NCBI RefSeq assembly: GCF_024298765.1
Contig: NZ_CP101213.1
DNA length: 62,297 bases
Reading direction: 5' to 3' (one strand)
From: Escherichia coli
GTDB lineage: Bacteria > Pseudomonadota > Gammaproteobacteria > Enterobacterales > Enterobacteriaceae
Shown: in pieces, positions 24,001-30,000 of the stretch
Position numbering within the stretch: position 1 is the stretch's first letter
How the letters are laid out: the number at the start of each line of letters is the position of its first letter
Program-made: the position numbers

Positions 24001-27000
24001 CGCGCTTAACGGGTTTTGTGTTGCCTGCATATTCCAGGACCTCATCGACAAGTAGCTGTCCTTCGTCATCTGGATCGCCAGCATGAATAATTTCGGTCAC
24101 ATCGGCACGCCTGATAAGCTCAATAATCGTTTTAACTTGTTTTGCGGCGCTTTCTACTGGCTGGTATTTTACGGGATAAAGACGCAAAGGGAGTGTTTCA
24201 ATCTTCCACTCTTTGTATTCAGGATTATAGTTTTCGGGGGGCTGTGATTCGATAATATGACCAAAACAGTTAGTCACAATAGTATTATCACTTTCAAACC
24301 AGCCATCATGACGGGTAAAATTGCCACCAAGCGCCTTAACAATATCATTCGCTACTGCGGGTTTTTCTGCGATAAAAAGTTTCATTTTGTTATCCTTTAC
24401 ATTGAATTAATCTTTTGGCACAACGGATAGCACGTTCTTCTGATACTGCCTGTTGCCAGTTATCTTCACTTACTGGATGTCTGAATCTGCGTTCACAGCC
24501 ATTAAAAGCAAAAATCCCCTCACGGTTAAGTATATTAGTTGCAATATCCTGGTCTTTAATTCTCAAAAAGGCTGTTACGGCAAAACCAGAATACGAAGAA
24601 ATTTTTGAAATGATGCATTCATCAGCTTTTATTAACGCGGCAAAAGGAACTATCTTTTGATGACCACACGAAATCAGAGGGAGTGTGTGAATATCATAAT
24701 AAGCTATTGAATGACAATCCATGCGGGTATCATCAATAGCTGCCAGCCAGAATTGGATTGGCCCCTATATTTCCATACACTTTTTATCACTTAACCCATT
24801 ACTGGTTCGCCGCCGCAGATATTCCCGTGGCGAACGATACCCCAGTGCACTGTGCGGATGCCATTCGTTGTAATGTTCGAAGGCCTCCGCAAGGTTCTTT
24901 ACCGCTGTTAACCCGTCGGGTTTCGGCATGATGCTGATGTAATCGCGCTTCATCGTTTTCACGAAGCTCTCTGCCATCCCGTTGCTTTCCGGGCTACGTA
25001 CCGCCGTATGTTTAGGCTCCAGTCCTACCATTCTGGCGAACTGACGCGTCTGATAAGAACGGTAGGCTGAACCGTTGTCTGTCAGCCACTCAACGGGGGA
25101 TGTCGGCAGGCTGTTACCGAAGCGACGCTCCACGGCACCCAGCATGACGTCCTGCACGGTTTCACTGTCATATCCACCGTTACTGGCCGCCCAGTAAAGT
25201 GCCTCGCGATCGCAACAGTCCAGAGCGAACGTGACCCGCAGTTTTTCACCGTTATCACAGCTGAACTCGAAGCCGTCAGAGCACCACCGCTGGTTACTTT
25301 CTCCAACGGCCACTTTCCCTGTATGCGCCCGCTTCGATGGCGGTATTTCCGGTTTACGCTCAAGCAGCAGCGCATTCTGACGCATGATGCGGTATACGCG
25401 TTTGGCATTGATCACCGCCATGTCGTCAGTTTCTGATTGTCTGCGCAGCAGTGCCCATACCCGACGATAACCATAGGTGGGCAGATCGCCGATAACGGTA
25501 TGGATACGGGCCAGCGCGTCAGTATCATCAGGCTTGCGCTTGCACCGACGATCCTGCCAGTCCTTCGACCGACGGGCCATGGCATGCAGTTGCGCACGTG
25601 ACACCCGGAGGCAACGACTGACAAGGCTTATTCGCCATCCTCCGGCAACAAGGGCACGTGCGCTATCCACTTTTTTTGTCGGCCATATTCAACGGCTTCT
25701 TTTAGCAGCTCGTTTTCCATGGTTTTCTTGCCCAACAGGCGCTGCAGCTCTTTAATTTGCTTCATCGCAGATGCCAGCTCCGACGCGGGCACAACCTGTT
25801 CTCCTGCGGCAACGGCTGTAAGGCTGCCTTCCTGATACTGCTTACGCCACAGGAACAGCTGACTGGCAGCAACGCCATGCCGACGGGCGACCAGCGACAC
25901 GGTCATTCCGGGCTCAAAACTCTGCTGAACAATGGCGATTTTTTCCTGAACACTTCGCCGTCTGCGCTTCTCTGGACCTAAAACATCAATCATTCGGACT
26001 CCAACGACTAGTCTAAAAACTAGTATTAAGACTATCACTAACTTAAGTGATTCCAACTGTCTGGAGATTCAGGGGGCCAGTCTAAGAATCCTGTCTGGTC
26101 TTTTATTTTTCTGCTAATATCTGAATCTGAAACACCAGGATTTAATAAATATCCACCATAACAGACATGGAAGGGGTGAGCAGATTCATCAATATCAGGA
26201 AGTTCTTTTACCGGATTTTCTTTCCAGTCCTTCAGAACACCGAATTCAAGAGCATCCAGCAAAAACTTTCGTTCAAATCCATCAAGCAATGCATATTGCA
26301 TGTTAAACCTCTCAAAGAAGCTCTGATTTGTTGACCTCATGGTGAACCAGTTCACCATTGCGTAAGACAAACAGGTAAGAAAACTTTCTTTCCTTATCTT
26401 TCAGTCAGTTTTTGTATTCAGAAAGAATAAACACCCAGTCATCGGTGCTGTAATGAGATGCGATGACTCATTATCTTTTTAGTGATGAGTTGATTATTTT
26501 TAAAATATGCCTGCCTTTAATTAGCATGTTTCTGGAAACAGCCTGATTACGAATACCTCTCATCTGGTCAAACTGATAGGTTAAATCATGTTCTTTTCGT
26601 GAAAGTCCAAGAGTGGCTCTTTCATTATCCATCAGGACTGAAATTGCAATATATTCTCCAGATGCACACCAGTCTGCATAACTGGCAACGCAATGTTCCA
26701 TCTCCTGACCTTCCTGACACAGAGCATCAAATGTAATTAATTCATTTACACCGTTATCAACTTTCTGCCAGTTTATCCCAGTTCCTTTCCATTTTGGGAT
26801 TACGGGAATAACGTTATTCTTCACTTGTCGCGTCCATTCATCAGATAGTCTCCAGAAAGAAGGCCACTCCTGGTTTTTATGAATTAACCGTTCTTCTGCT
26901 AACAACCAGTCAATTGCATGACACAACTGATTCGTTTCCATTTCCCAGCGTGATGTTTGCCTGGATTCAGTATTACGGTCATAAAAGCCAATGTTTTTAA

Positions 27001-30000
27001 ATAAATCACGATGATATTCTAGCCATTTTGAGCATATACGATAAATATCATTTTCTTTTTCTGAGTAAGCTCGAATGCTAATATAATCGATAATCCAGTA
27101 AATTGCTCTCACAGGATAGTTCTTGATAAGTGGATGGCGTAATAATCTGACTGTAAATCTGAATGATGCATTATCATGTTTATCATTTAAAGCATATACT
27201 AATGACAAACTAACATGTCGTAAACTTCTGAACTCACCATAACTAAGTTTGCAGGGAAAACTGATTTTTTCATATAACTCTTTTGTCTTTCCAGATAGTA
27301 TAAACTGACCATTTTTATGTTGTTGTCTTAGACGACCAACCATAGGCCACAATCCGAAAAAATCCATATCATTCACAATATGGATTCGCTTTGAAAAATC
27401 CAGATAGTCCTCAAATAATGCCTGACGAATTGAATTGTAAGCTATCGAACAATGTGAAGCTCTGGCATATTGTGCAAATATCTTTTTATCTACCATTATC
27501 CATATAGCTTTACTCAATGCTTTTGAAGCATTAAATTCATTATCCACCCCTATAATTTTTAATGCTCTCTGATAAATTTTGTTTTTTATCTCTGCGAGTA
27601 AAATATGTCTGCTGATATATCGTGTATTATAGGGGTAGTTGAATGATGCTATTTTACCAAGGCAATGAACAATGTCATGTATTCCATACTCATATGAGTA
27701 ATATACATTGGATGGATATAGTGTGGAAATATAACGACTCTCACTGTTTTCCTCTTCCTCTCCAATGCGTAACAAATAGAGTTTGTCTTCAATTGAATAT
27801 CCAGCCTCAATCAATGATTTGATGATGTAGCTAATCGCATATTTTAACCAGTCGTCCATGTCGTATGCAGATTTTTTAGACCAGAATAAAAAAATCTTAC
27901 CAGGAAATGAATTTCTTCTGGTCCATACCCCAGTGTGCTTATCTCTTAGCTTGTATCCCCACAAAGTGATTTTGTTATTCTTTTTGTTTTTTCTAATACG
28001 AAAAACGCCACAAATGATAATGGAGATGTACTTTTCATTCTCCTCTGTTTTTACAAGACGAAGCCCCCCTGTATTTTGATAGATTTTAAAAACATCATGC
28101 AACGTAAGAATATTATTGTCCCTTGTCTGTTGATTAATTACATACATGCCGCCCCCTGTTAAAAAGAAGCCTTTAATATTGCACAAAGATAAAAAGACAG
28201 AATCATGGCAAACCAAAAGAAGAATGCATTTTCTTGCCCCCTTAATTTCTGATACGCCATTCCCACGGTGGAACCGGATTTGCATCGGCCCACAAACCAC
28301 GTTTTTGTTCCTGCGCTTCCCGTTGCAGAGCCGGTAATGACTCATCCACGTTGTAACGTTCATATACCCATGCAGCGCCAGACTGAACCATAAAGCGGCT
28401 GGCATCCGTGCCGTTCGTCGTGAACACATGACCGATAATGCGTCCGTAGCGGTCTTTATGTGAATAAGAGACTGTCACCTGTTTACCTGCAACCAGAGTT
28501 TTAAGCTGACTAGTTGACCAGCGTCCAAAAGGTTGTTTCTTTTCAGGGGCATCGATGTTTATCAATCGGACTCGGATCGGAACTTCATACACAACAATTT
28601 TTGCGGGTAGTGTTTTAATTTCTATGGTGTCGCCATCGAGAACGCGAATAACTTTCCCCTGAAGAATTTTCTGGTTAAATGTATAAGGTATTCCACCTGC
28701 ATTTGCAGACTGAAAAGCGGTAAGCAGATAAATAAATATTGTTAATAAGATTTTCATAAAAGATTAACGTTAATTTGTCTGTGCAATGGATAGAGCGTTA
28801 TTCTTATTTTCTTCCTGCCGCTTCATCGAAAAATGATGATTTTCCTACTGCTGCGGCATCATACTGAAATGAATATCCAAAATCATCGTCATGCTCAAAA
28901 CCTGTATTTTCTCCATTTTTTAGTCTGGAAAGAATAATCTCAAGTTGACTGATTATATCTTCCCTTTCACTATGACGAGTGCCTTGTAAGAGAATAGTTA
29001 CTTGTTGCAAAGGATATGCATGTTCAATCCATGCCTGGCTAGGTCCAGAGTGCGTTGTATATAAATTTTTTTGTGCCGAAATATTATTCAGAAAACAGTT
29101 TAAGTCATCATTGGAATAAATTTCTTTAATATTGTTGATGTTGGATGTTAGTTTTCCAAGTTGGAATGGTGGAGAATTTTTGTCTTCATTGTTGTCTCCT
29201 TTATCGTATTCTGGAAACACAATTAACAAAGGTGCACCATTAGTTCTCTTCATAAAACGGGTTACTAGCCGCCCAATATATTTATTGGACATATGCTGTT
29301 CAATGTCCAGGACAGCATATTCCTCCGCTGGGAACATTTTGTTTTTTTCGATGGATTTAATTTTTCTGGTAAGATGAATGTTTCTGATAAGCAAACCTAC
29401 TATCAGGAAGTAAATAAATATCCAGAATAAAAAATCACTCTGTAGTTGTTCTATCATAAGTGAATCCTCTAATTTGTTAATGGACAAATCATTACCCGTT
29501 CATCAATGTTTGTAGGAAGTTCGCCAGGAGTAGGGACGCGTTCTCCTCGCTGGGCGGCTTGTGCCAGTGTTCGTAGCAGCAACACGCTGGCATGAAATAT
29601 GGCCTGTTCTTTTGTGGCTGCGCTTGTTTCCAGGTCGAAATCACTCAGAGTCACAACGACTTGCCCGTTTCTGTTCTCGACCGTTGCCGGGTAGGGAACA
29701 AAATAGGGAGCGATTTTGCTGGTTTGCTTGCGTCGGGCATCGAGTTTACTGACAAGTTGATAAGCCCGAAGGTGTGTGTATCGTTTCAACATGTTCAGGG
29801 AGCGATGGCCTGAAATAGCGGCAACCTCAATGACGTTCAATGTACCAAGTTCGAAAAATCGGCTGATAGCCTCATGACGGAGGTCATGAAAATGCAAGTT
29901 TTCTATCTTCAGTTCCTGAAGTGCTGTTCGCCAGGCACTTTTGAATCCCGAAGAGGTATAAGAAAAAATATTACCGTTAAGCTGTGTCGGCAGCATTTGC

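Follow-up and report, generated by a model that had tools for sequence, protein, structure and literature searches.

We analyzed a stretch of 62,297 nucleotides (nt) from Escherichia coli (NCBI RefSeq assembly GCF_024298765.1, contig NZ_CP101213.1), hereafter called the window. Sequence identity and gene content identify it as DNA of an IncI2 plasmid that carries mcr-1.1. Our subject is a block of three genes, yebA, nuc, and pcfJ, which lie between the shufflon recombinase gene rci and a gene split by an insertion sequence (IS). We think that these are probably three independently distributed accessory genes of conjugative elements, held within a conserved IncI2 backbone, and not one functional system. 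The original prediction, made from the sequence alone, had proposed that the block could be a defense, exclusion, or establishment module. This single-module reading is not supported, because a search of PADLOC gave only a generic nuclease match, the trio does not travel together, yebA can be lost, the syntenic genes of plasmid TP114 are dispensable, and the nuclease is predicted to be exported. The backbone genes of IncI2 plasmids have practical interest because such plasmids count among the principal carriers of the colistin resistance gene mcr-1.

All three of the predicted open reading frames (ORFs) were found on the minus strand between rci and the IS-split gene. The large protein is real but has 558 amino acids (aa) instead of 559.

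28804..29457, minus strand, yebA-type gene, 217 aa (from the ORF and start site; transmembrane [TM] helix, linker, and C-terminal domain)
28242..28757, minus strand, nuc (yeaA in R721/TP114 naming), 171 aa, staphylococcal-nuclease type (Pfam SNase match)
26471..28147, minus strand, pcfJ (ydjA by synteny with TP114), 558 aa (Pfam PcfJ match; named "PcfJ domain-containing protein" by the Prokaryotic Genome Annotation Pipeline [PGAP])

A conserved run of IncI2 backbone genes

A 3.3-kb query around the trio was 100% identical to many complete IncI2 plasmids from E. coli, Salmonella, Shigella, and Klebsiella, and 421 records in PLSDB covered at least 80% of it. In the annotated neighbor pMRY15-131_2 (IncI2, MOBP, MPF_T), the gene order is nikB (annotated as an LPD7-domain protein), mcr-1.1, pap2, hha, type IA topoisomerase, a 191-aa hypothetical protein, PcfJ domain-containing protein, [nuclease], a 217-aa hypothetical protein, rci, and then pilV and the pil genes. 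The order rci-yebA-nuc-pcfJ-ydiA-topB-hha is kept in pMRY15-131_2, in the mouse gut plasmid pPG20180050.1-IncI2, and in the archetype R721. The block therefore belongs to the core backbone of IncI2 and is not an accessory island specific to this strain. The trio is already catalogued in hundreds of sequenced plasmids, where the genes are named but uncharacterized, and it is no discovery in itself.

The intergenic gaps along rci-yebA-nuc-pcfJ are 11, 46, and 94 nt, and all of these genes are co-oriented. Promoter-like and terminator-like sites in the block did not exceed the expectation from shuffled sequence, and repeat and Rfam scans of the block returned nothing above chance. From the small gaps, the shared orientation, and the lack of promoter or terminator signal above chance, we infer that the block genes are co-transcribed with rci and with the downstream ydiA, topB, and hha. 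Together, rci, yebA, nuc (yeaA), pcfJ (ydjA), ydiA, topB, and hha would make up a single closely spaced backbone run. Codon bias had been taken to suggest acquisition from a lower-GC source. This signature is present in pcfJ (34.8% GC, within the lowest 0.3% of same-size windows) and in yebA (34.6%), compared with 42.6% for the whole window, but nuc is ordinary at 44.4%.

Searches of PADLOC-DB v2 returned no family for the PcfJ protein, for yebA, or for either half of the IS-split gene. The only model found for nuc was the candidate C3a212 ("SNc+LTD"; E = 2e-11), whose nuclease part is the generic SNase domain. Outside IncI2, the three genes do not co-occur. An SNase gene accompanies PcfJ in 3 lineages and TopB accompanies PcfJ in 9. 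Adjacent SNase and PcfJ genes are seen again in a Salmonella plasmid (L007) and in p14-95A (L016), and plasmids of Betaproteobacteria carry yebA-like domains with no PcfJ. Even within IncI2 the trio can come apart, as in the mcr-1 plasmid pYUAHC37-MCR (NZ_CP126512.1; L050, 3305-3365), where rci is followed by the thermonuclease gene and then by pcfJ, with yebA missing.

These data bear directly on the idea of a three-gene antiphage or abortive infection module, in which the nuclease and the membrane protein would be effectors and the large protein a sensor. The parts list is superficially defense-like, two of the genes are low in GC, the SNase matches a PADLOC candidate, and the N terminus of yebA has a weak match to Saf_2TM (E = 0.0088). 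Nevertheless, we consider such a module very improbable: the PADLOC match is limited to the generic SNase domain while PcfJ and yebA match no model, an exported nuclease would not reach phage DNA in the cytoplasm, the three genes are not conserved together, PcfJ is tied to DNA-processing genes of conjugative elements, and the block is invariant backbone and not a variable defense island. One false lead can thus be removed, as nothing supports a defense system at this block.

The reading of the block as three separate accessory genes also agrees with published data on TP114, another IncI2 plasmid. High-density transposon mutagenesis classed yebA, yeaA (pfam00565), ydjA, ydiA, and ydgA (topoisomerase) as nonessential for maintenance and for conjugation, both in vitro and in the gut of mice (PMC7508951, Supplementary Data 1). 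Two features of this comparison weigh against our reading. The TP114 names were mapped by gene order and by the SNase Pfam entry, not by sequence, and the assays went from E. coli to E. coli (PMC7508951), so that a phenotype that concerns fitness cost, another host, or a restriction barrier would go unseen.

The position of the block relative to the transfer origin also bears on an establishment role. nikA and nikB occupy 13858-18509 on the plus strand, the block lies downstream of nikB on the opposite strand, and oriT is expected upstream of nikA. In the usual MOBP/IncI1 polarity, the relaxase genes enter the recipient last. Given this polarity, the block would be transferred late, which would argue against a classical leading-region establishment role.

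The PcfJ-domain protein and its topoisomerase neighborhood

The start codon of pcfJ is most likely the ATG at 28147, which is preceded by GGGGG and on which PGAP and all homologs agree (MYVIN/MHVIN start); the ORF remains open upstream to 28429, but this extension is not conserved. The protein had been described as extremely rich in Asn, Lys, Ile, and Tyr. The composition is in fact moderate (I, 10.2%; K, 7.7%; N, 6.5%; Y, 6.3%). The tentative relation to PcfJ fared better. In a Pfam hidden Markov model (HMM) search, PF14284 (PcfJ) matched residues 458 to 537 (E = 5.9e-7; 29.8 bits; model positions 58 to 137 of 147), a span that takes in the conserved-looking block quoted in the original prediction, ELITFDALCQEGQEMEHCVASY (residues 466 to 487), and the PGAP annotation concurs.

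26537..26776, minus strand, Pfam-matched PcfJ core (residues 458 to 537; family-invariant residues present)

Nine residues of this region (E479, G480, H485, C486, Y490, C494, T512, Q528, and N534) are conserved in 95 to 100% of 160 diverse family members. All nine are present here, and they are also seen in alignments A3 and A5. Three tryptophans, W428, W438, and W453, reach the same level of conservation among the 160 members. All of the members of alignment A3 (45/45) match PF14284. The alignment is too degenerate for pattern scanning. The invariant constellation E-x5-HC-x7-C...T...Q...N probably marks a catalytic or metal-binding site.

The AlphaFold2 (AF2) model of the protein (mean predicted local distance difference test [pLDDT] score of 80) has three parts: an N-terminal part rich in beta strands, a helical middle rich in Trp, and a C-terminal b-a-a-b-b-b-a domain. 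Residues 467 to 558 follow the same order of strands and helices as the N-terminal core of GNATs, with a conserved Q-x-R-G at the position of GNAT motif A. We rejected assignment as a GNAT acetyltransferase, since the chain stops before beta5 and thus lacks the complete b1-a1-a2-b2-b3-b4-a3-b5-a4-b6 core with its acetyl-CoA site (motif A plus b5). A Foldseek search of the model against the PDB and a profile search of PDB sequences were both negative, and searches of PcfJ against NCBIfam, PADLOC, and PHROGs gave only one insignificant PHROG match.

Close full-length relatives of the protein (38 to 99% identity) are confined to plasmids of Enterobacterales and Aeromonas. A profile built from full-length relatives finds 3,190 representative clusters at an E value of ≤0.001; most are 500 to 600 aa long (typically ~550 aa), and most share only the last 150 to 260 residues. 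The family is found on conjugative plasmids and on integrative and conjugative elements (ICEs), and a more distant member sits in an ICE-type transfer gene cluster. A genome scan yielded 26 loci, only 3 of them with full-length relatives, and a scan of viral contigs confirmed no loci. PF14284 takes its name from pcfJ of the Enterococcus faecalis plasmid pCF10. Like other members, the IncI2 protein is encoded on a conjugative element and has a C-terminal domain that fits the HMM and carries the H-C-V motif of the family (H485-C486-V487). Its match, however, covers only part of the HMM and has a modest score. Unlike the PF14284 domain alone, it has ~450 additional N-terminal residues (beta-rich plus Trp-rich helical) that are shared only within a proteobacterial subfamily. 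In the full-text literature we found no functional study of any PcfJ family member, only annotation-level mentions, and membership in PF14284 therefore provides a name and not a mechanism.

A recurrent companion of pcfJ-subfamily genes is a gene for a type IA topoisomerase.

22220..24385, minus strand, TopB, plasmid type IA DNA topoisomerase, 721 aa (annotation of pMRY15-131_2; tblastn co-location across loci)

Within the ~550-aa gammaproteobacterial subfamily, TopB lies within ~3 kb of PcfJ in 9 of the 12 assessable lineages (L005 and L012, too short to judge TopB proximity, were left out of the 12). Across the TopB-linked lineages, PcfJ identities are only 23 to 45% and TopB identities are 35 to 51%. 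The arrangements are as follows (SSB, single-stranded DNA-binding protein; T4CP, type IV coupling protein).

IncI2: pcfJ-ydiA-topB-hha
Aeromonas veronii (L006): TopB-PcfJ-H-NS
Salmonella (L007): SNase-PcfJ-SSB-TopB
L009: T4CP...TopB-PcfJ...Hha
Proteus mirabilis (L013): PcfJ-topB (4-nt gap)-H-NS
Yersinia frederiksenii (L014): SSB-Topo-H-NS-x-PcfJ-YmoA
Pseudomonas aeruginosa (L015): KikA-PcfJ-TopIA-SSB
Hafnia paralvei (L022): TopB ends 184 nt before PcfJ
Vibrio sinensis (L024): TopB is 2.7 kb upstream of PcfJ

SSB adjoins the PcfJ/TopB region in L007, L014, and L015, and H-NS or Hha is close to PcfJ in L005, L006, L009, L013, L014, and L022 as well as in IncI2. The co-oriented pcfJ-ydiA-topB-hha genes of IncI2 thus resemble the TopB/SSB/H-NS-Hha accessory clusters of other plasmids (e.g., that with the TraE topoisomerase of IncP), and related plasmids put PcfJ beside TopB with SSB or H-NS/Hha near. 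The difference is that PcfJ is not a recognized component of such clusters. A pairing of hns with topB is also known from IncX3.

PcfJ may be an accessory DNA-processing factor that acts with TopB and SSB on plasmid DNA intermediates. This role is suggested by the way in which the subfamily stays beside a type IA topoisomerase despite its divergence, often with SSB, H-NS, or Hha. A functional tie between PcfJ and plasmid topoisomerase III is, in our judgment, a tentative proposal, possible rather than probable. Several observations weigh against it. The link is a matter of synteny only, and the 9/12 count overstates independence because the lineages share ancestry. The full-length PcfJ relatives in L011, L016, and L023 have no nearby TopB, and tblastn probes found no TopB within 10 kb of distant PcfJ-domain genes from Bacteroidota, Clostridia, and other groups (one distant PcfJ-domain gene has an adjacent SSB gene). 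Moreover, TopB homologs occur in at least 5,000 PLSDB plasmids versus 541 with this PcfJ subfamily, and TopB therefore does not need PcfJ.

To describe how the genes have evolved, we compared them at two depths. Relative to the 64%-identical homolog of p14-95A, the ratio of nonsynonymous to synonymous substitution rates (dN/dS) is ~0.19 for pcfJ and ~0.16 for nuc; at this depth both genes are constrained and under purifying selection. Between two IncI2 alleles (92% aa identity), dN/dS is 0.77 for pcfJ versus 0.09 for topB. The differences between the alleles cluster in residues 121 to 300 of PcfJ, where the corresponding ratio of observed differences (pN/pS) is ~1.07, and residues 121 to 180 have a pN/pS of 2.15, from small counts (20.5 nonsynonymous and 2.5 synonymous differences). 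The alleles hardly differ in the C-terminal 200 residues (pN/pS, 0.41). The homolog P0027 lacks most of the segment from 121 to 300, and two other homologs are also shorter. The counts are small and dS is raised in the patch too, so that the patch could equally well reflect diversifying selection or the recombination of a divergent segment.

Taken further, PcfJ proteins of conjugative plasmids and ICEs could be a widespread and so far unrecognized partner of the topoisomerase III/SSB machinery, one that is an enzyme or depends on a metal. The Glu/His-Cys/Cys active site would be new and would sit on a truncated version of a GNAT-like fold, and patch 121 to 300 in IncI2 alleles would be an arms race interface with host factors. 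We regard this as unlikely. If it is true, the IncI2 pcfJ gene would be a tractable entry to the function of a family with ~3,000 clusters. The points worth keeping are the very large size of the family, its sharply conserved putative active site, and the persistent topoisomerase III neighbor in this subfamily. The PcfJ-TopB association and the E/HC/C site amount to a testable hypothesis, on a tractable plasmid, for a gene that annotation merely names.

As a separate observation, DUF6012 genes recur next to or near PcfJ in three otherwise different plasmid lineages (L011, 7345-7977; L016, 8793-9383; L015, 373-1008). DUF6012 may be a second PcfJ-linked gene, one that is not present in IncI2.

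The putative exported nuclease and the membrane-tethered protein

The prediction of a thermonuclease with a signal peptide was borne out. The nuc product matches the whole SNase domain (PF00565; E = 7e-26; model positions 1 to 107 of 107), and alignment to thermonuclease structures shows that DGDT, R..D.PE (RL..D.PE), and YGR are kept, corresponding to the Ca-binding and catalytic residues D21, R35, D40, E43, and R87 of SNase. By inspection, the N terminus is an intact Sec-type signal peptide, MKILLTIFIYLLTAFQSANA, which ends in ANA before GG. We thus assign nuc with high confidence as a predicted exported SNase nuclease. It would be an active-looking, Sec-exported, Ca-type enzyme that digests periplasmic or extracellular DNA.

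In its SNase fold, its catalytic residues, its signal peptide, and its dispensability for conjugation (from the TP114 data), nuc resembles staphylococcal nuclease and a class of exported nucleases that conjugative plasmids encode, the nuc type, of which nuc of the IncI1 plasmid R64 is an example. R64 nuc is likewise reported not to be required for conjugation. The sequence similarity to Staphylococcus aureus nuclease, however, is only remote (E of ~3e-8), and the curated NCBIfam equivalog models for thermonucleases (EcnA and NucI) match only below their cutoffs. Literature on plasmid nuc genes and on IncI2 plasmid evolution yielded no functional data on the block genes.

For yebA, the original prediction had described a 227-aa membrane-anchored protein with no recognizable motif. 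The anchor was recovered as one N-terminal helix, but the protein is more likely to be 217 aa, from the ATG at 29457 (AGGA 7 nt upstream; 12 nt past the rci stop), than the product of the 227-aa TTG ORF, and it ends in a conserved domain of ~75 aa. In the AF2 model, a single TM helix at residues 2 to 40 is followed by a disordered linker (residues 43 to 105; pLDDT of <50) and a beta-alpha-beta-beta domain (residues 153 to 199; pLDDT of ~90). The C-terminal domain, W143..HAYPLQQvTi.LQGTRHSeR...G..G.eHDDDFGYsF...FFD, is strongly conserved and unnamed, and it is 55 to 65% identical in plasmid proteins of Burkholderia, Ralstonia, Cupriavidus, and Variovorax and in metagenomic contigs. These homologs have unrelated N termini with two TM helices or none. 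Searches with yebA gave no significant match to a family in Pfam, NCBIfam, PADLOC, or PHROGs. Saf_2TM (PF18303) was rejected, as its match (16.4 bits) is not significant and the model has a single TM helix where two are needed. The homolog P0063 carries PF28167, an accession that is absent from the Pfam scan results for yebA.

Basic residues follow the TM helix of yebA. Under the positive-inside rule, and with homologs that are soluble or have two TM helices, the 75-aa domain probably faces the cytoplasm. We also considered entry or surface exclusion, or competition. Here yebA would be an entry exclusion factor, and the periplasmic nuclease would guard the resident plasmid by breaking down foreign DNA that is incoming or extracellular. 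A small protein with an inner membrane anchor beside transfer genes and an exported nuclease would suit such a role, and the donor-side transposon screen of TP114 would not score exclusion. Exclusion proteins, however, are normally system specific and poorly conserved, and the yebA domain is shared with Betaproteobacteria plasmids that have different transfer systems. The predicted cytoplasmic location of the domain, the many homologs without a TM segment, and the lack of yebA in the otherwise intact pYUAHC37-MCR also speak against exclusion, which we judge to be highly unlikely.

The yebA-domain homologs were seen in three contexts. One context is beside a DUF5710-Toprim protein within arrays of KfrB, LPD, and methylase genes; a second is near methylases, an AcrVA2-like gene, an SNase gene, and a coupling protein; and in a third, a VbhA/Fic pair precedes the homolog and a coupling protein follows it. 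A BLASTP search found no conserved partner gene next to yebA-domain genes. Polyvalent-protein, anti-restriction gene arrays of conjugative elements, with KfrB, LPD, and methylase-rich regions, are said to have been described by Iyer et al. in 2017. The yebA-domain homologs are like such arrays in sitting inside them and beside the DUF5710-Toprim protein. The IncI2 gene differs in that it lies between rci and nuc and places the domain on a small protein tethered to the membrane. No known LPD or anti-restriction domain was detected in that protein. Individual homologs can be found at L002, 7333-10747 (Ralstonia-type plasmids; by DUF5710-Toprim), and at L017, 5173-8498 (SNase and AcrVA2-like genes within 3 kb).

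Such company raises the question of whether the block genes, PcfJ and the yebA-domain protein especially, are anti-defense or establishment factors. They would act in the recipient, possibly after transfer through the type IV secretion system (T4SS), against host restriction or to condition the new host, and would resemble polyvalent or anti-restriction proteins. The genes found around yebA-domain homologs (KfrB, LPD7, and LPD1 polyvalent-type genes, DNA methylases, the AcrVA2-like gene, the VbhA/Fic pair, and coupling proteins) are consistent with this idea, as is the fast-evolving patch of PcfJ when set against topB, and the TP114 assays included no restriction barriers. Still, at the usual MOBP polarity the block would enter the recipient late and lie outside the leading region, none of the three proteins has an anti-restriction or Acr HMM match, and the pN/pS counts are small in a patch whose raised dS is also what a recombined segment would give. 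On balance, we find an anti-defense role doubtful. Within the favored reading of three separate accessory genes, we assign yebA with high confidence as a membrane-tethered carrier of a conserved plasmid domain. The protein would be tethered in the inner membrane, and its 75-aa domain would be a mobile module of conjugative plasmids that is found near coupling-protein, Toprim, and anti-restriction genes.

The insertion sequence and other features of the window

The gene downstream of pcfJ, ydiA, is interrupted in this plasmid.

24754..26084, no strand assigned, IS3-family element, ISEc36-like, 1331 bp (5-bp target duplications at 24749-24753 and 26085-26089)
26085..26370, minus strand, 5' part of the 191-aa gene (ydiA by synteny; 100% match to the intact pMRY15-131_2 gene; breakpoint by BLASTN)
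24390..24753, minus strand, 3' part of the interrupted 191-aa gene (BLASTN breakpoint mapping)

The element had been taken for IS2. This identification was rejected: the element is 99.9% identical to elements annotated as ISEc36, which has the same length and target duplication as IS2. The insertion may be polar on topB and hha. The intact 191-aa ydiA protein has no Pfam family, and DUF6012 was rejected as its identity (no Pfam match; BLASTP against a DUF6012 protein, E = 0.22). In some records (e.g., L050, 5848-6423) and in the TP114 table, ydiA is labeled "DNA topoisomerase III." Because the protein is much too short and lacks a Pfam domain, this label is probably a propagated misannotation.

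Two further genes serve as landmarks on either side of the block.

29469..30680, minus strand, rci shufflon recombinase gene (directly upstream of yebA in the same orientation; PGAP coding sequence of 374 aa versus listed ORF of 403 aa)
18730-20355, plus strand, mcr-1.1, 541 aa (100% identical to the annotated MCR-1.1 of pMRY15-131_2)

ISApl1 was not found upstream of mcr-1.1, where the end of nikB is only 220 nt away, and pap2 follows mcr-1.1 at 20403-21200. Elsewhere in the window, an Rfam match to the sok antitoxin RNA at 2459-2630 (plus strand; 98 bits) points to a hok/sok postsegregational killing locus.

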